Assembly (NCBI GenBank): GCA_031459915.1
Contig: JAVKHO010000002.1
Coordinates: 102,597-166,596, forward strand
Direction: 5' to 3'
DNA length: 64,000 nt
Origin: Candidatus Tepidifontimicrobium thermophilum
GTDB lineage: Bacteria > Sysuimicrobiota > Sysuimicrobiia > Sysuimicrobiales > Sysuimicrobiaceae
The notes beneath the pieces are model-generated. The model ran no database searches and was not told the DNA's origin. It saw nothing but the letters and a program-made list of their open reading frames with translations. Made by a program: the position numbers and the translations under genes. Positions 12,913 through 61,970 of this stretch are shown here, piece by piece; the stretch's first letter is position 1; the number at the start of each line of letters is the position of its first letter.

Positions 12913-13227
12913 CTACCGGGTCCGCAGCAGGACGGTGACGAGGGTACCTCCGATCCCCACCAGCACGGTGAGGAAGGTCCCCATCAGCCAGTAGAACAAC
13001 CGCCCCATCTCAGCCCGCACGGCCTGGATCTCCCCGCGCACCCCCTGGATGTCGGACCGGAACTCCGCCCGCAGGTTCTGGAGCTCGGCCCGCACCGCCT
13101 GGATCTCCGTCCGGAACTCCGCCCGCAGGGCCTGCAGGTCCGCCCCGAGGTCCCCGAGCCGCTTGTCCAGCTGCTCGTAGCTGCCCTCCAGACGGGCCAT
13201 GCGGACTTCCAGGGCGTCGGTGGCCAT
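12913..13227 (-). CDS. Small coiled-coil protein with C-terminal TM anchor, copy A (104 aa)
   Basis: Heptad/hendecad repeats LRAEFRTEIQAVRAE, then hydrophobic LFYWLMGTFLTVLVGIGGTLVTVLL and a basic tail. Confidence 0.8.
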   Translation of the reverse strand: MATDALEVRMARLEGSYEQLDKRLGDLGADLQALRAEFRTEIQAVRAELQNLRAEFRSDIQGVRGEIQAVRAEMGRLFYWLMGTFLTVLVGIGGTLVTVLLRTR

Positions 13228-13306
13228 CCCGCCGGCATTGTACCACCGCGGGCCGCCTGGCTCCCGTCGCTTCGCCCGTGCCTGGGAGGTCTTTTGAGGC
13301 CCAGAC

Positions 13307-13600
13307 CTACCGCGTCCGCAGGAGGACGGTGACGATGGTCCCCCCGATCCCCACCAGCACCGTGAGGAAGGTCCCCATCAGCCAGTAGAACAACCGCCCC
13401 ATCTCCGCCCGCACGGCCTGGAGGTCGGACCGGAACTCCGCCCGCAGGTTCTGGAGCTCGGCCCGCACCGCCTGGATCTCCGTCCGGAACTCCGCCCGCA
13501 GGGCTTGCAGGTCCGCCCCGAGGTCCCCGAGCCGCTTGTCCAGCTGCTCGTAGCTGCCCTCCAGACGGGCCATGCGGACTTCCAGGGCGTCGGTGGCCAT
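13307..13600 (-). CDS. Small coiled-coil protein with C-terminal TM anchor, copy B (97 aa)
   Basis: Near-identical to copy A but one heptad shorter. ATG 13600 lies 9 nt after TGCTACAAT. Confidence 0.8.
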   Translation of the reverse strand: MATDALEVRMARLEGSYEQLDKRLGDLGADLQALRAEFRTEIQAVRAELQNLRAEFRSDLQAVRAEMGRLFYWLMGTFLTVLVGIGGTIVTVLLRTR

Positions 13601-13683
13601 CCCGCCGGCATTGTAGCACGCCGGCCCCCTGGCTCCGTCCGGCCCACGGCCGTACAATCGTGCCGAGGTCGGGGGACGCTTCC

Positions 13684-14457
13684 GTGCGCTTTGTCAACGT
13701 GCCCAAGGCGCTTCGGGACCAGCTGGGGGAAGAGGCCACCCAGGCCCTGGTGGACCTGCTCAACGCCGCCACCGACCAGACCCAGGCCGACACCCTCGCC
13801 CTGTCGGAGGGAAAGTACGAGCGACGGCTGTCAGAGGAGGCGGCCAGGCTGGACCGCAGGGTCGCCGAGGAGGCCGGCCGCCTGGACAACCGTATCACCG
13901 AGGAAGCCGCCAAACTGGACCGCAGAATGACCGAAGAGGTCGCACGCCTCGACAACCGTATCACCGAGGAAGCCGCCAAGCTCGACCGCAGGATCACCGA
14001 AGAGGTCGCCCGCCTGGAAACCCGCATCGCCGAGGAGGTCGCCAACCTCGACCGCAGGGTCACCGAAGAGGTCGCACGCCTCGACAACCGTATCACCGAG
14101 GAAGCCGGCAAGCTCGACCGCAGGATCACCGAAGAGGTCGCCCGCCTGGAAACCCGCATCGCCGAAGAGTCCAGCAAGCTCGACCGCAGGATCACCGAAG
14201 AGGTCGCACGCCTGGAAACCCGCATCGCCGAAGAGTCCGGCAAGCTCGACCGCAGGGTCACCGAAGAGGTCGCACGCCTGGAAAACCGCATCGCCGAGGA
14301 GGTGGCCAAGGTCGACCGCAGGATCACCGAAGAGGTCGCACGCCTGCGGACCCAGATCTCGGACGTGCGGGCGGACCTGATCCGGTGGATGTTCGTGTTC
14401 TGGGTGGGCCAGATCGGCGTCCTCCTGGGGATCCTGTTCGCCTTCTTCCGCAGGTAG
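13684..14457 (+). CDS. DUF1640/CCDC90-like head-stalk-anchor protein with hendecad repeats
   Basis: Head VPKALRDQLGEEATQALVDLLN, 11-residue repeats and anchor LIRWMFVFWVGQIGVLLGILFAFF. Start moved to GTG 13684 because 13660 abuts the TACAAT -10 at 13653-13658. Confidence 0.85.
   Translation: MRFVNVPKALRDQLGEEATQALVDLLNAATDQTQADTLALSEGKYERRLSEEAARLDRRVAEEAGRLDNRITEEAAKLDRRMTEEVARLDNRITEEAAKLDRRITEEVARLETRIAEEVANLDRRVTEEVARLDNRITEEAGKLDRRITEEVARLETRIAEESSKLDRRITEEVARLETRIAEESGKLDRRVTEEVARLENRIAEEVAKVDRRITEEVARLRTQISDVRADLIRWMFVFWVGQIGVLLGILFAFFRR
13816..14343 (+). repeat. Intragenic 33-bp tandem repeat, about 16 units
   Basis: Units encode L(D/E)(R/N/T)RI(T/A)EE(V/A/S)A(R/K); some units recur almost exactly in DNA. 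Confidence 0.95.
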
Positions 14458-37729: not shown

Positions 37730-38392
37730 TCACCCGCGCGGGTGCTGGACCGCGCCGCGGACCCCGCGCTCAGGCCCCTCCGTGGGGGCCAACCACCGCC
37801 GCAGCGCCTCCAGGGCCCTGTGGTGCAGGCGGTACAGGTGGGACACGCTCACGCCCAGCTCCCGAGCCGCAGCCGCGGGGCTGCGCGGACGGAAGTAGAA
37901 GACCTCCACCACGGCCCGCTCGCGAGGAGGCAGCCGCTGCAGGCCCTCGGTCAGCTGTCCCGCCAGCACTGCATCCTCCACCGCATCCAAAGCCTCCTCT
38001 GCCGCGGCGTCCTCCAGACGGTCCAGACTGGCACCCGGCGCCTCCGGGGCGTCCAGGGAGTTCGCCCGCGCCCGCTCCCTCCGCAGGGCGTTCAACACGG
38101 CCCCACGGATCCGGTAAGCGGCGTAGGTGGAGAACCGGAAGCCCCGGGCCGGCTCGAACCGCTCCACCGCGTCGATGAGGCCCACGGTCCCCTCCTGGAT
38201 CATGTCCATGAGGTGGGCCTCCGGCAGCCCCATCCCCATCACCACCTTGAAGACGAGGGGCTGGTACGCCTCGATCAGGCGTGAGCGCGCCTGCCTGTCC
38301 TGCCTGCCCTTGTACCGCTCCCACAGCTCCCGCTCCTCACCGGGCGTGAGGGTCCGCACGCGTCGCAGCTCCCGGACGTACTCGTCGAACAC
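37730..38392 (-). CDS. Alternative sigma-70 factor (group 3, FliA/WhiG/SigK-like)
   Basis: Region 1.2 EYVRELRRVRTLTPGEE, region 2 DMIQEGTVGLIDAVERFEPARGFRFSTYA..RIRG and a region 4 HTH. Confidence 0.92.
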   Translation of the reverse strand: MFDEYVRELRRVRTLTPGEERELWERYKGRQDRQARSRLIEAYQPLVFKVVMGMGLPEAHLMDMIQEGTVGLIDAVERFEPARGFRFSTYAAYRIRGAVLNALRRERARANSLDAPEAPGASLDRLEDAAAEEALDAVEDAVLAGQLTEGLQRLPPRERAVVEVFYFRPRSPAAAARELGVSVSHLYRLHHRALEALRRWLAPTEGPERGVRGAVQHPRG

Positions 38393-56933: not shown

Positions 56934-57004
56934 GCCCTCCTCCAGGCTGCAGCTCGCGTCCACCATAGCAGGAACCGGACAGGCCGTCCAAGAACACCGC
57001 CGCC

Positions 57005-59857
57005 GTGACCCCCGAAGGCGACAGCCTGCTGGCCGCGTGGGCCGAAGCCGCTTCCCGTGGAGGTCCCGTGCGCTTCCTACGGGAGCGCTTCGGAGACCCC
57101 TGCCTGGAGGTGGCCGAACACCTCAAGGACCTGGTGGACCGCTTGGCCCACCACCGACCGCAGCAGGCCTTACAGCGGGCCCGGGAACTGGCGGACTACG
57201 CGGAAGCCGGAGCGGACCCAACCGTCCGGGTGGTGGCGCGCCTGGCGGTGGCCAACGCGCTTCTCTGGTGCGAGCGGCTGGAGGAAGCCCACGAAGCCTA
57301 CGAGGCCGCTCGGCGGCTGGCCGACGCACACGGCCAGCCCCACCTGGCCGCTCGGTGCGGGGTCGGCCGCATGGGGGTGCTGTTCCGGCAGGGCCGCTAC
57401 CGTGAGGCGCTGGAGCTGGCAGACCTCATCGAGCCGGTGCTCGCCGCTCACCCAAAAACCTGCCTGTTCGCGGCCCGCGTGCGGGCACAGCGCGCCACCC
57501 TCCTCCAGTACCTGGGAGACACCGAGGCAGCCCTTTTGGCGTACGCCCAAGCGGCTGACCAGTTCCGGACTCTGGGGGAGTCCGCCAACCTGGATCTGGC
57601 CGTGGTCCAGCACAACGCGGGGCTGCTGCTGGCGCAGCTCGGCCGCCACGCGGAAGCGGCTCAAGCCCTCCAGGAGGCCACCAGGCGCGCGGAAGCTGCC
57701 GGCAGCTCCCTCCTGGCCCTGCGGTCGGCTGCGGCCACCGCCTGGTCGCACGTGGCTCAGGGCCGGTACGCGCACGCCCTTCAGGCTCTGGAGGAGGTGG
57801 CGGACCGCTACCGGGAGGCTGGCGTCCCTGCCGCGGCAGCCGCCTACCGGCTCTTCGCTCTGGAGTGTCGCCTGTACCTGGGACAGGCGGACCGCGTGAC
57901 CCGCGAAGGGCGCCACTTGGCGCACGAGCTGGACGCGGCGGGGTTCATAGCCGAAGCGGCCCGCGCCCGCTACCTGGCTGCTGTGGCGTGCCGGCAGCGA
58001 GGAGACCTCCACGCCGCGGGGACGCTCCTCCAGCAAGCCCTAGCGGCCCTCGACAGGATCGGGCGGCAGCCGTGGAGGGCCGCCGCCGCCTGCGAGCTGG
58101 CCGCCGTGCGGTCGCGCGAAGGGAACACGTCTGAGGCTGTGGCACTCGCGGACCAGGCCTACCGGAGCTGGGTCGAGGTCGGCAGCCCCGCGGGCACGGG
58201 GCGGGCCCTGCTGGTGCGCTCCGACGCTTACCTCCTGCTGCAGGACACCGCCACTGCCCTCCAGTCCGCGCGAGAGGCTCTCCGTCTGGGGCAGCAGCAC
58301 CGTATGGCCTGGCTTTGCGCTGCGGCCCACCGCCGGCTCAGCGTCCTGTGGCCACCAAGGCGCAGCGGGCACTTGCTCAGTGGTGTGCGGTGGGCCGACC
58401 GCATGCTGGCATGGCTCCCTGCGGACTTGCGCTCGGGGGTGTTCGCGGAGCTCGGCGAGCTGTACGCAGCCTCGGTGCTGGAGCTCTGGGGACGGGGGCG
58501 GTGGGTGCGGGCGTGGGAGGTGGTCCAGTCTGCCAAGTCGAGGGGTATGGCCTGGCTTCTGGCCTCCCACGGGCTCCGGGTGCGCCCGCGGGATCCCGCC
58601 AGCGCCCACCTAGTACAGGAGCTGAACCGCCTTCTGGAGGCCCACCGCCGCGGGGTTTTCGCAGAGCTGGACCCTGGCGAGCCACACTTCCCCGGACAAC
58701 CGGCCGAAGCGGACCTGGAATCCCGGGTGCGGGACCTGCTGTGGCGGCTCCAGTTGCAGGACCCCGCATACGCTTCCGAGGCCCCCTTCCTGATGCGCAC
58801 CCTCAGGCCAGCTCTCCCGGATCTGGACAGCGACACGGCCCTGGTGGAGTACTTCGTGGCCGGCGACCACGTGCTGGTCTTCGTGCTGGAGCCTGATGGA
58901 CACGTGCTTTGCCACCGGGCCTGCGGAACGCGGGAAGTGGCGCGGGTGGCCGCCCTGTGGGCGAACGGCCTCCGCGCGCACGCCACCGGACAGCTCTCCA
59001 CCCGGCAGGCGGTACGTCAGGCCCGTCGGGTCCTCCAGGACCTGCACTCACTCCTGGTGGCCCCGGTGGAGCCACGGCTCCGCCCCTACCGCCGCCTCGT
59101 GGTGGCGCCCTTCGGGCTGCTGCACGGCCTGCCCTTCCACGCTTGCCATGACGGGCACGCGCACGTGTGGGACCGGTGGGAAGTGGGGTATGTGCCCGCA
59201 GGGTCACTGCTTCCCCTACTTCAGAAGCGGCCGATGGCCCGCGGACCCGCAGTGTGCGTGGCCGACGGCCTGCGGGGCCAGCTGCCCGGGGCCGTGGCAG
59301 AGGCCCGCTGGGTGGCCCGGCGACTTGGCGGCCGCCTGTACGAGAGCCCGAGTCCGGACCAGCTCCTGGCCGCCGTGCGGGACGCAAAGCTGGTGCACGT
59401 GGCTGCCCACTGCCGTTTCCGGCCCGAGGCGCCGCTACTGTCCGCCATCCACCTCGCCGCGGGCCCGGTCACCGCGGCGGACGTCCTGGCAGCCGAGGCT
59501 GGCTGTGGGATCGTGGTCCTGAGCGGCTGCGAGACCGCGTCCTCCAGGGTATTGCCCGGGGACGAGCTGGTGGGCTTCACACGCGCGTGGCTCCACGCCG
59601 GTGCCCGGGCGGTGGTGGTGTCCTTGTGGCCGGTGCACGATGGGTCCACCGCCCAGTTCATGCAGCAGCTGTACGACCATCTAGCTCGTGGCGCGCGGAT
59701 CCCGGATGCACTGCGAAGCGCCGGCCTCCAGCTGCGCGCCCGGTGGGAGCACCCCTGGTACTGGGCCGGGTTCGTCGTGGTTGGGGATCCCCAGGCCCGA
59801 CTGGTCGAAAACACGGGCTGCGCGCGTTCACCGGACGGAAGCCTTCAAGGAGGGTGA
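57005..59857 (+). CDS. TPR-repeat plus C-terminal CHAT (caspase-like) protease
   Basis: About 480 aa of TPR-like helices, then [28 protein letters not shown], dyad HVAAHC / [18 protein letters not shown] and HPWYWAGF. Confidence 0.93.
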
Positions 59858-59860
59858 AAC

Positions 59861-61258
59861 ATGCACGGAGGGTGGAACCGTCTGCGCGGCCACCTGGTGG
59901 TGGCCTGCCCGGAAGCCCTTTTGGACTCCCTGGAGCAGTTCCACTCCGTCCGGTGCCTCCTGCCTCCCCCGAGGCCGCAAACGGTGTTCGTCTCCCGGCG
60001 GCCTGGTGGGGCGTGGCGGTGGGAAGCGCTCCCTCTGCCGCCCGTCCGGAGGAGCCCTCCGTGGTTCCGGGCGGTGCGGCGGTTCGTCGTGGAAACCGAC
60101 GAACCGGAACGAAACGTGGCCCGGCGCCTATCCGAGGCCGCGCCGTCCGCCCACGCGTCCTTGGACTTCCAAGTCCGCGGGCAGGCGGAGGTGGCCCACG
60201 GCAGCCCGACCCCGGAGTCCGCTATCTGCGTTCCCGACGCCGACGAAGTGGACTTCGCCAGCCAGCCGGCCTTCGAGCAGATCGGGCTTTTGCAGTACGA
60301 GCGGGTAAAGTTCCGGCCCCGAGGGGAGGGTGTGACCGTCGTCATCCTGGACAGCGGCCCCGGGCTCGGGCCCGACGGCCTGCCACGCCTGGACCCCGGC
60401 TGCGTGGATGTGTATGTGGACTGGCCGCAACGCGTGCCGGAGAACTTCCCGGTCTGGGTGCCCCTGACGGACGCGGAGGACCCTCCCTGCGGGCTGGCGG
60501 AGCGCTGGCGGGCCAGGGCCTGGTCGCCGCTACTGGCCACCGACGCACAGATGCAAGACTACCGCGCCCACCACGGGGCCATGGTGGCGTCGCTGGTCCG
60601 CCGCGTGGCCCCTGGGGCCCGCGTGGTCCTGGTGGCGCTGCTGAACCGCGAGCTCGCGACCGCCACCTACGAGCTCGCGGAGGTCCTCCGGTGGGCTTAC
60701 GAGCTCGCAAGCCTTCCCGTGCGGCACCCCGACACCCGGGCGCCCCTGGTGACCCTCCCCCTCGCGTACAACCTGAGCCTGGGGGTGGACCGGTCCCAGC
60801 CGGAGACGGTGCAGTCCTGCGCGCTCCTGGCGGTGGTGGACGAGCTGGCGCGCCAGCGCGCGGTGCTGGTAGCGGCGAGCGGCAACCTGTCCCAGGGCCG
60901 GCCCGAAAACTGCCTGGAGCCTGCCGCCTACGGGCACTTCGGAGACACCCTGGCCACCCAGACACAGGTGATCCCGGTGGCGGCCACCAGTGCTGCGCAG
61001 CCAGACCGTTACGCGTGGTTCAGCAACGAAGCGCACTTCGCAGCCCCGGGGGAGGACCTCATCCTGGACTGCGGGGCGGTGCTGGCGGGGTCCCGCTACG
61101 TCCGCTGGTCGGGCACCTCCTTCGCGGCAGGCCTGGTCACCGGCGTGGTGGCGGTGTTGCTGAGTACGGGGCTTTCGCCCGAGATGGTGAAGGCCAGGCT
61201 GTGGGAACGGGCCGCGCGGCCCTCACGGTGGGACGGGGTGCACGCGGTCCGCCTGTGA
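59861..61258 (+). CDS. S8 subtilisin-like serine protease, no signal peptide
   Basis: Triad VILDSG, HHGAMVASL and WSGTSFAA plus oxyanion AASGN. SD AAGGAGG overlaps the end of the CHAT gene. Confidence 0.92.
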   Translation: MHGGWNRLRGHLVVACPEALLDSLEQFHSVRCLLPPPRPQTVFVSRRPGGAWRWEALPLPPVRRSPPWFRAVRRFVVETDEPERNVARRLSEAAPSAHASLDFQVRGQAEVAHGSPTPESAICVPDADEVDFASQPAFEQIGLLQYERVKFRPRGEGVTVVILDSGPGLGPDGLPRLDPGCVDVYVDWPQRVPENFPVWVPLTDAEDPPCGLAERWRARAWSPLLATDAQMQDYRAHHGAMVASLVRRVAPGARVVLVALLNRELATATYELAEVLRWAYELASLPVRHPDTRAPLVTLPLAYNLSLGVDRSQPETVQSCALLAVVDELARQRAVLVAASGNLSQGRPENCLEPAAYGHFGDTLATQTQVIPVAATSAAQPDRYAWFSNEAHFAAPGEDLILDCGAVLAGSRYVRWSGTSFAAGLVTGVVAVLLSTGLSPEMVKARLWERAARPSRWDGVHAVRL

Positions 61259-61700
61259 GAGGCGAGCGGCGCGCCGAACACCGACCGTGCCCGGTTTGCG
61301 GCACGTACCCAGCGGCGCAGGGGTGGTCTCGTACCCGCGGGCGGGACGGCGGTCACGGGGGAGGTGACCCTCTCGGGAGGTGCAGCAGGGGCCTCCTGGC
61401 CACGCCCACGGCGGCCTGACCGCCGGGGTGCTCGACGAGGCCAAGGGCACCGCTGTGTGGCGCGCGGGCTACCTCACGGGTGTAGGTGGACGATCGCCCT
61501 CCCCCTGGACCGGGTGGTAAGCGTCGAAGCGCGGCTGGGTATGTCACCCGGCAGCCTGCGGGGCTTCGTGGAAAGCCCCCGAACACCCCTAACCGCCCGC
61601 TGGAACACAGGCGAGTGGCGAGGAGCAACGACCGGCGCTCCCCGGCGCACCCACCGGCCGCCGTTCCTCGCTGAAGCCAAGGCCCGCCGCGTCGAGCACT
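61255..61700 (+). pseudogene. Frameshifted PaaI/hotdog thioesterase remnant
   Basis: GTG overlaps the S8 stop. EHRPCPVCGT, VTGEVTL, QQGPPGHAHGGLTAGVLDEAKG and LPLDRVVSVEAR are spread over three frames. Confidence 0.7.
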
Positions 61701-61923
61701 CAGGGCGACAGCGTGTACTCCACGAGCTCGTAATCCCCGCTGTCTGCCCCCTCCTTCCATCGCCCCATGACGTAAAACCGTACCTGCGCTGAGAGCCAGT
61801 CCTCCTGCTCCGAGTGGCCGAGATGAACACCTTGGTACGCCTCTTGGTCCACGTGCCCCGGTCTAGGAACTCGTACGTCCCTTCTGCCTCCCACGAGGCT
61901 CCCGCGGTCAGGGGCCCTCGCAC
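61700..61923 (-). pseudogene. Possible C-terminal fragment of a beta-rich exported protein
   Basis: PLTAGASWEAEGTYEF in one frame and EQEDWLSAQVRFYV..GDYELVEYTLSP-stop in another; no clear start. Confidence 0.3.
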
Positions 61924-61970
61924 CGGGCCGGGCGGGCGGTTCGGAGGGGACGAACGTTTTCGTGGTGGCC

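Follow-up and report, generated by a model that had tools for sequence, protein, structure and literature searches.

A split gene set with a TPR-CHAT protease, an S8 subtilase and sigma/anti-sigma partners as a candidate switch for DNA uptake in Sysuimicrobiota

The locus described here carries two adjacent protease genes in Candidatus Tepidifontimicrobium thermophilum (Sysuimicrobiota), within a 64,000-nucleotide stretch of contig JAVKHO010000002.1 (positions 102,597 to 166,596, assembly GCA_031459915.1) that we call the window and whose numbering we use. The first gene (57005..59857, + strand) encodes a 950-residue TPR-CHAT caspase-like cysteine protease, and the second (59861..61258, + strand) a 465-residue S8 subtilase. 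As an earlier note on this DNA had observed, the two open reading frames (ORFs) are co-oriented and 3 bp apart, with the S8 Shine-Dalgarno sequence, AGGAGGG (59848..59854, + strand), inside the last CHAT codons, and neither protein has a signal peptide: hydropathy scoring finds no hydrophobic N-terminal stretch in either (best 13-residue values 0.52 and 1.56). That note took the pair for a stand-alone accessory module in which CHAT removes the S8 pro-region and S8 acts as executioner in defence or death. We argue instead that the pair is the protease half of a four-gene set that likely controls genes for DNA uptake. Comparisons are between 12 genomes of one Sysuimicrobiota family (hereafter the family; G000 is the source genome) and 82 other genomes of the phylum, the host's close relatives being Sysuimicrobiota/Armatimonadota. 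Two unpublished genomes (G023 and G076) are among the 82 and enter only negative counts, and trees of relatives were built with FastTree.

The CHAT domain (PF12770) is matched by Pfam with an E value of 5.6e-53 (180.7 bits against a cut-off of 24), and TPR repeats are also present, in a superhelix spanning residues ~1–510. The catalytic dyad, His802/Cys842, is found in 21/21 family CHAT proteins. In all of these the residue following the catalytic histidine is Cys, a position at which Gly or Ala is common in 87 other relatives. The fold of the structural model (pLDDT 87; predicted template modelling score, pTM, 0.84) matches Csx29 best, followed by separase. The score against the Csx29 sequence model is 37.9 bits, with a cut-off of 300.

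The S8 domain (PF00082) is likewise recognized by Pfam (E 9.5e-15, 55.1 bits against a cut-off of 21.8), and D164, H238, N342 and S420, previously noted as intact, are invariant in 23/23 aligned relatives. The N-terminal extension, put earlier at about 150 residues, is confirmed, its size is not: the model (pTM 0.86) has a prodomain fold of about 106 residues (~6–106) and a linker to about residue 130. By this model the extension is an I9-like prodomain, because residues 9–465 align with unprocessed pro-subtilisin E (Z 26.1, root-mean-square deviation 3.4, 310 residues aligned) and also with PCSK9; the entries compared were PDB 3whi, 5vla and 2x8j, covering pro-subtilisin E, PCSK9 and intracellular subtilisins (ISPs). 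A Pfam search of the protein for I9 gave no match, so the prodomain is assigned by fold only. In the ISP propeptide Ile7 is P1, according to the accessible part of the source (PMC6220982), and ISP precursor residue 1 or 3 aligns at S8 model residue 102 or 104. From this offset, if ungapped, Q108 would be P1 and residues 105–108 would lie at P4–P1, which predicts ordinary S8 self-processing near Q108/A109.

Beyond this predicted site lies a linker, HG[SG]P[TS]P (residues 113–118), in which no family sequence of the alignment departs from H113, G114, P116 or P118; residues 110–116 are conserved and modelled with low confidence, as expected of a flexible segment. We surveyed this region in the best 150 profile hits of the S8 protein, scanning 149 for repeats. 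Just after the prodomain, 32/149 relatives carry 7-residue tandem repeats, mostly of the form [SND]-P-x-x-x-x-G, and G[SGDN]P occurs in the post-prodomain segment of 79/114 relatives against 137/2500 background segments. The protein studied here has a single HGSP unit and the relatives have 2–6 tandem 7-residue units. Many of the latter look secreted, with a hydrophobic N terminus in 12/21 strict repeat carriers scored (hydropathy 2.6–4.0). Such repetition suggests either that short peptides are released by cutting at several sites or that inhibitory segments are stacked.

Both proteases belong to a locus that the family has kept. The S8 profile matches 12/12 family genomes and 0/82 others, and a full-length CHAT orthologue is present in 12/12. 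A phylum-wide CHAT profile matched 86/94 genomes and was not used as a presence count, because its matches outside the family are mostly to TPR repeats. The linkage of the two proteases claimed earlier is borne out in all 12 family genomes, in one of them across a contig break. The divergent tkt gene lies beside the pair in 11/11 family genomes checked (11 of the 12), and the GC content of the pair is that of its flanks. The pair is thus a vertically kept core locus in a housekeeping context, and the label of accessory unit does not stand. The ratio of nonsynonymous to synonymous substitution rates within genera is 0.22–0.40 for CHAT, 0.13–0.27 for S8 and 0.10–0.15 for tkt; both proteases are thus encoded by real and intact genes on which purifying selection acts. 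Contigs from RNA runs cover the non-coding spacer as deeply as the genes, so that RNA is inseparable from DNA there, and the raw-read runs gave 2 and 0 reads.

Relatives were also sought outside the phylum panel and in mobile DNA. Viral contigs held no S8 relative and no related viral locus; plasmid records gave three weak matches in the S8 sister search, and five neighbourhoods of plasmid CHAT genes, when opened, were all unrelated. The CHAT gene of one outside genome (G051) was rejected as an orthologue, since it belongs to a different, secreted sigma/anti-sigma/CHAT locus. This locus (L049:6436-17364, on G051:C118) encodes a sigma factor of the extracytoplasmic function (ECF) type, a membrane anti-sigma, a secreted TPR-CHAT protein and three RCC1-repeat-like lipoproteins, and may be a contaminating contig.

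Distant metagenomic relatives place the pair in a larger cassette. From the best 80 of 266 loci found with the sister CHAT clade we counted those whose flanks reach 2.5 kb or more upstream and 0.6 kb or more downstream, 29 loci in all, several of them near-duplicates. Seven of these 29 encode sigma, anti-sigma, CHAT and S8 together; 12 have sigma, anti-sigma and CHAT, 2 have anti-sigma, CHAT and S8, 6 have CHAT and S8, and 2 have CHAT alone. The cassette sigma has no Pfam match at 0.01, its matches to sigma70-ECF models being sub-threshold (best 5e-11, under the cut-off); its Atlas neighbours carry the name sigma factor. Its partner matches zf-HC2, CarboxypepD_reg and anti-sigma models, and we predict that this zinc-finger protein binds the sigma. 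Atlas neighbours of S8 and of the sigma are mostly from Chloroflexota, the metagenome loci themselves having no taxon. Among the cassettes, L119, L125–L128, L131 and L151 carry sigma, anti-sigma and CHAT genes with no adjacent S8, followed by an amidohydrolase gene and a convergent tricorn (S41) protease gene; tandem duplications occur as CHAT-S8-CHAT-S8 in L111 and L113 and as CHAT-S8-S8 in L098.

A Pfam search of the source genome for Sigma70_r2 (PF04542) returned 10 sigma genes, none of cassette type. This apparent absence was overturned because a profile of 13 cassette sigmas identified one gene, G000:C10:27280-27873 (E 3e-57), that PF04542 misses. Protease pairs that seem orphaned can therefore have unlinked partners that Pfam does not find. 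The cassette-type sigma is present in 12/12 family genomes and 1/82 others, the latter (G013) having a split copy. The sigma gene (197 residues, L161) is divergent from a run of sugar-epimerase, ku and DUF72-like genes, with ku and ligD-like genes (names read from sequence) beside it, and is convergent with a conserved 123-residue helical ORF, whose housekeeping promoter is strong and whose 5' leader is long and structured. At a third locus, a profile of 13 cassette partners identifies a one-finger anti-sigma-like gene in 11/11 other family genomes and 0/82 outside. In G001 this gene occupies G001:C25:1315-1893. A conserved 189-residue Xre regulator gene (L173:530-1099 and orthologues; families f1, f3 and f4) is divergent from this anti-sigma gene. 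The four-gene set of CHAT, S8, sigma and anti-sigma-like protein is thus split over three loci in one family. The pair is not stand-alone, and the earlier fallback of an unlinked target is consistent with the presence of the sigma and anti-sigma-like genes elsewhere. The further suggestion that an ECF sigma in homologous loci would mark a truncated known system is right for the sigma, which is often there in relatives, and wrong for the truncation, since the system is split here.

The upstream regions of the family anti-sigma genes share AAA-N13/14-CGTT, in the form AAA-N13-CGTTCACT, and a matrix trained on eight anti-sigma promoters only was used to look for this motif elsewhere. In the source genome a copy sits within the CHAT gene, near its 3' end and 28 nt ahead of the S8 start, where the predicted cognate-sigma promoter of S8 reads TCGAAAA-12-GCGTTCACC (59805..59832, + strand). 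A score of at least 10 is found 18–33 nt before the S8 start in 9/12 family genomes, G004, G009 and G011 being the misses (G011 has a partial match). The CHAT gene of the family lacks the motif (0/5). In the distant cassettes a score of at least 12 precedes the anti-sigma gene in 9/15, 8 of them showing a clean CGTT and some being interdependent, against 1/16 for sigma, 2/21 for S8, 9/30 for CHAT and 8/109 for other neighbours. The motif is therefore a candidate promoter of the cassette-type sigma. A de novo bipartite motif sought upstream of the distant sigma genes did no better than shuffles.

These results bear on the cascade of the earlier note, where CHAT, activated by a ligand, would strip S8 of its pro-region, and S8 would then kill or stall the cell in defence against phage. 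The pair is linked in 12/12 genomes, CHAT and S8 occur with no adjacent sigma in 8/29 distant loci, the S8 linker at 110–116 is conserved and flexible, and a CHAT protein coupled to a second protease has a precedent in SAVED-CHAT/PCaspase (10.1101/2023.06.23.546230, as far as the accessible part of the source goes). We nevertheless consider the cascade very unlikely, because the S8 prodomain is of a self-processing type, S8 has its own predicted promoter, the locus is core and vertically kept, and cognate sigma and anti-sigma genes sit at other loci. Nor is there a defence island: the searches with defence-system models (DefenseFinder/PADLOC type) that had been proposed gave only weak partial or sub-threshold matches at the locus, PADLOC and Csx29 models included, and no viral relative was found. 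As noted earlier, no sigma, gasdermin or Cas gene adjoins the pair. No gasdermin gene is adjacent in any of the 12 family genomes, whose neighbours are housekeeping genes, and no Cas gene is among the neighbours; these statements concern the neighbours, with no genome-wide search for gasdermin or Cas7-11.

What the sigma would transcribe is suggested by the other sites of the motif, which is one-directional and lies at promoter distance. At a score of at least 14, 16/2521 called genes of the source genome have it, against 5 in a reversed control. It precedes comF, radC, yraN, recA, dnaB, a RAYT transposase gene and a DNA ligase gene (NCBIfam names), and the first gene of a pilin-like run that appears to be a minor-pilin operon (names from sequence). 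It also precedes comM (10.7), which dprA follows; dprA has a motif of its own in 0/9 cases. Scores are 20.5 for dnaB, 15.6 for recA and 14.6 for the ATP-dependent ligase. Two genes tested after the competence idea had formed, comEA (13.4) and comEC (18.9, with a corrected start), both have the motif. The radC motif is found in 9/11 family genomes against 1/19 outside, and the comM motif in 7/8 against 0/10, two outside loci having been dropped for lack of DNA or match. At comF, yraN and radC the motif ends 6–8 nt before the ATG, where the -10 element of a leaderless transcript would lie. In relatives, strict hits occur before RAYT genes and before the small gene that follows recA, and inspection by eye adds comEC; in G013, with its split sigma, there is a distant weak match only. 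Because the family genomes are kin, so that counts are not independent, and most units were chosen after hits had been seen, we give counts and no significance tests.

Three motif-bearing genes deserve description. RAYT (REP-associated) transposase genes have it in three genomes (G000:C8:10297 and C21:1-266; G007:C14 and G007:C22; G011:C49), which would tie RAYT expression to competence. The small gene after recA (G000:C19:17252-17566), with the motif in G000 and G004, has no NCBIfam match; we take it to resemble DUF3276 single-strand binding proteins, and it could replace the single-strand binding protein of competence. The dnaB gene (G000:C3:71508-73883) contains an intein, and its strong motif lies 17 nt upstream.

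Taken together, these data lead us to propose that CHAT cuts the anti-sigma and thereby frees the sigma for DNA-uptake (competence) genes, the anti-sigma gene and S8, a reading to which we assign a probability of roughly 0.55. What is shown is that the four genes co-occur in one family and are linked in related cassettes, and that in genomes with the sigma the motif is common to the regions upstream of anti-sigma, S8 and competence genes. With no motif before its gene in the family, CHAT would be a standing sensor. Once activated it would cut the soluble zinc-finger anti-sigma protein, as predicted by analogy with the Csx29-Csx30-CASP-sigma system, and the divergent sigma so freed would transcribe the DNA-uptake genes together with the anti-sigma gene as a brake and the S8 gene as feedback. 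S8 would mature by self-cleavage near Q108/A109 and then most likely supply or expose an HGSP-type linker peptide that triggers the TPR sensor; otherwise it would shut the response off. The likely role of the set is thus to turn on natural competence through proteolysis and not to kill the cell.

Several observations weigh against this proposal. For the proteases, single frameshifts interrupt CHAT in G001 and S8 in G008, by error or decay, and no S8 adjoins CHAT in 14/29 metagenome loci. For the partner, the profile search finds no anti-sigma gene in the source assembly. Its neighbours xre, nadA and nadC are likewise missing, and in a sequencing run that contains the source strain (at least 99% identity on the window) one contig covers the anti-sigma gene of G001 with 89% identity; since the whole xre-anti-nadC-nadA block is missing and 89% fits the 90–91% identity between G001 and the source genome, the block was likely lost to an assembly gap, though the contig could stem from a sister species. 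For the motif, matrix scores are inflated at AT-rich distant loci; at score 10 the source genome shows no excess (42/2521 genes against 45 in the reversed control), the strict pattern applied genome-wide separates the family poorly (1–13 against 0–6 outside), and the outside genome G026 scores 11.4 at radC. G009 has all four genes, yet its motif copies are confined to the anti-sigma gene and a single further site, with none at S8, radC or comM. In the source genome the major pilin, pilB, pilT and ssb have no motif, and the recA match is near-palindromic and may be a LexA-type box. Finally, because the hits include RAYT transposases, dnaB and DNA ligase, the regulon may extend more widely to DNA handling.

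The last of these points can be carried further. The same circuit and sigma promoter might serve a general DNA repair or replication-stress regulon that includes uptake genes, for instance for DNA as food. The motif before dnaB, recA, the ATP-dependent ligase, two RAYT transposases and the small gene after recA would fit, as would the ku and ligD-like neighbours of the sigma gene and the motif-free major pilin, pilB and pilT. Yet comEA, comEC, comF, comM-dprA and the minor-pilin operon are dedicated uptake or processing genes, all with the motif, and recA, radC and helicase genes are usual in competence regulons, so we hold a repair output to be improbable. It is also conceivable that another family-specific regulator binds the motif and that the four genes make up a stress circuit of the ECF54 kind with a different output. 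The motif is assigned to the sigma by co-occurrence only, G009 is an exception, and typical ECF promoters have a longer spacing. Against this stand the direction and promoter distance of the motif and its position before the anti-sigma gene that neighbours the sigma in distant cassettes. The Xre regulator, tried as the binder, fails on distribution: xre is present in 21/23 f4 genomes, yet 6/6 f4 genomes tested have no motif at radC. We regard another binder as highly improbable.

The order in which the proteases act is a separate matter. Sigma and anti-sigma could run competence with either of the two as the substrate of S8, or with CHAT only processing S8. The proteases are unlinked from the sigma pair in the family, frameshifts occur singly in G001 and G008, and the ECF54 proteases have been proposed to act on the sigma itself (PMC8999054, accessible part). 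These arrangements appear unlikely to us, given that the family retains the four genes together, that no such set was found outside it, that CHAT is the constant neighbour of sigma and anti-sigma (19/29 loci against 7 for S8), and that the predicted promoter places S8 downstream of the sigma. Returning to our proposal that CHAT cuts the anti-sigma, one tentative and rather unlikely elaboration is that the S8 precursor is a source of pheromone-like peptide: the excised linker would bind the CHAT TPR cradle, the anti-sigma would be destroyed, the competence sigma freed and S8 re-induced in a positive loop. In some species the ComRS trigger peptide is also 7 residues long. A predicted complex of CHAT 1–935 with S8 residues 99–140 scored 0.00 and is counted neither for nor against.

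The ECF54 gene context is reportedly that of Huang et al. 2015. Taking cited works here as far as their accessible text goes, this context in Actinobacteria comprises a divergent ECF-type sigma, a CarboxypepD_reg partner, a subtilase and a TPR-CHAT protein (PMC7826278; PMC8999054), the same gene set by context and description as ours. In the 2021 classification of Casas-Pastor et al., ECF54 hosts are 100% Actinobacteria (PMC7826278), whereas our host belongs to Sysuimicrobiota; ECF54 is described without an anti-sigma, whereas here the partner has a zinc finger and is anti-sigma-like. The neighbourhood set is linked in 7/29 distant loci; in the family the same genes are present but unlinked, at three loci. 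The promoter predicted for ECF54, GTATCAG/CTCC, was matched neither ahead of any G000 gene nor in any of 33 upstream regions, and we predict a regulon here. The gene set is thus already known as ECF54 context, and the split layout, motif and competence regulon appear to be new, having no match in the literature searched. That literature, with most subscription papers outside the search, also holds nothing that joins CHAT, subtilase and sigma beyond ECF54, and no Chloroflexota competence sigma.

Other systems are alike in part, again by the accessible text of their sources. In type III-E CASP/Craspase (Csx29-Csx30-CASP-sigma), a TPR-CHAT protease, Csx29, cuts a sigma inhibitor and so starts transcription (PMC10028731); here no Cas7-11 or CRISPR array lies beside the pair, the anti-sigma is another, an S8 protease is included and the predicted output is DNA uptake. 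SAVED-CHAT/PCaspase also couples CHAT to another protease, and a sigma factor is close by (10.1101/2023.06.23.546230), its own features being a nucleotide-sensing SAVED domain, a caspase as the second enzyme and CRISPR-linked abortive infection. DdvA/DdvS of Myxococcus xanthus ties TPR-CHAT to ECF sigma control (PMC11506125); there the TPR-CHAT is part of a transmembrane anti-sigma, whereas ours stands alone as a cytoplasmic protein whose catalytic residues are intact. In ComRS-ComX/SigX of streptococci a peptide binds a TPR sensor upstream of the competence sigma (PMC5131891). The likeness is functional only, a TPR sensor and an alternative sigma over competence, with a peptide trigger there and possibly here: ComR is a DNA-binding activator of sigX, whereas our TPR sensor is a protease that would exert post-translational control through an anti-sigma, and no homology is claimed. 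Pro-subtilisin E, PCSK9 and ISPs share the prodomain-plus-catalytic fold; the S8 protein differs in having no signal peptide yet a full I9-like prodomain, and a conserved HG[SG]P linker that is tandem-repeated in relatives.

ECF54-type cassettes have been catalogued by context without a known input, target promoter or output. The motif and candidate regulon were exposed because the cassette is split here, with two of its genes under separate promoter copies. If the proposal is true, caspase-like proteases gate horizontal gene transfer, a role beyond defence and death, and competence gains a control scheme based on a protease and an anti-sigma. One sigma and one promoter would then be a handle for inducing transformation in lineages without genetics. 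Should the peptide-source reading also be true, the set would parallel ComRS-ComX on a protease basis, and the widespread sigma/anti-sigma/CHAT/S8 cassettes would gain a function.

The flanks of the pair lie outside the system. Upstream, a likely housekeeping promoter of the divergent tkt gene (56963..56991, - strand) combines TTGGAC with an extended -10 element, TGCTATGG, conserved in 9/9 loci viewed; it is absent from the list of a consensus promoter scanner. Only 13 nt separate its end from the start codon of CHAT, for which there is no Shine-Dalgarno sequence. Although the longest ORF of tkt begins at 56966, that ATG falls in the conserved extended -10 element, and the true tkt start is likely 56933. 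Downstream, the variable spacer at 61259..61970 is a bystander with a thioesterase remnant, and its description as pseudogene debris holds: the codon score marks it as non-coding, and a 216-nt part is 81% identical to the region of the thioesterase gene in the nearest relative. A sigma-70-family gene at 37730-38392, between tamB-like and bamA-like genes and 19 kb from the pair, is not the cognate sigma. At 12913-14457 near-identical small coiled-coil genes stand in tandem, and a related coiled-coil gene (C16:8242) has the top-scoring motif.

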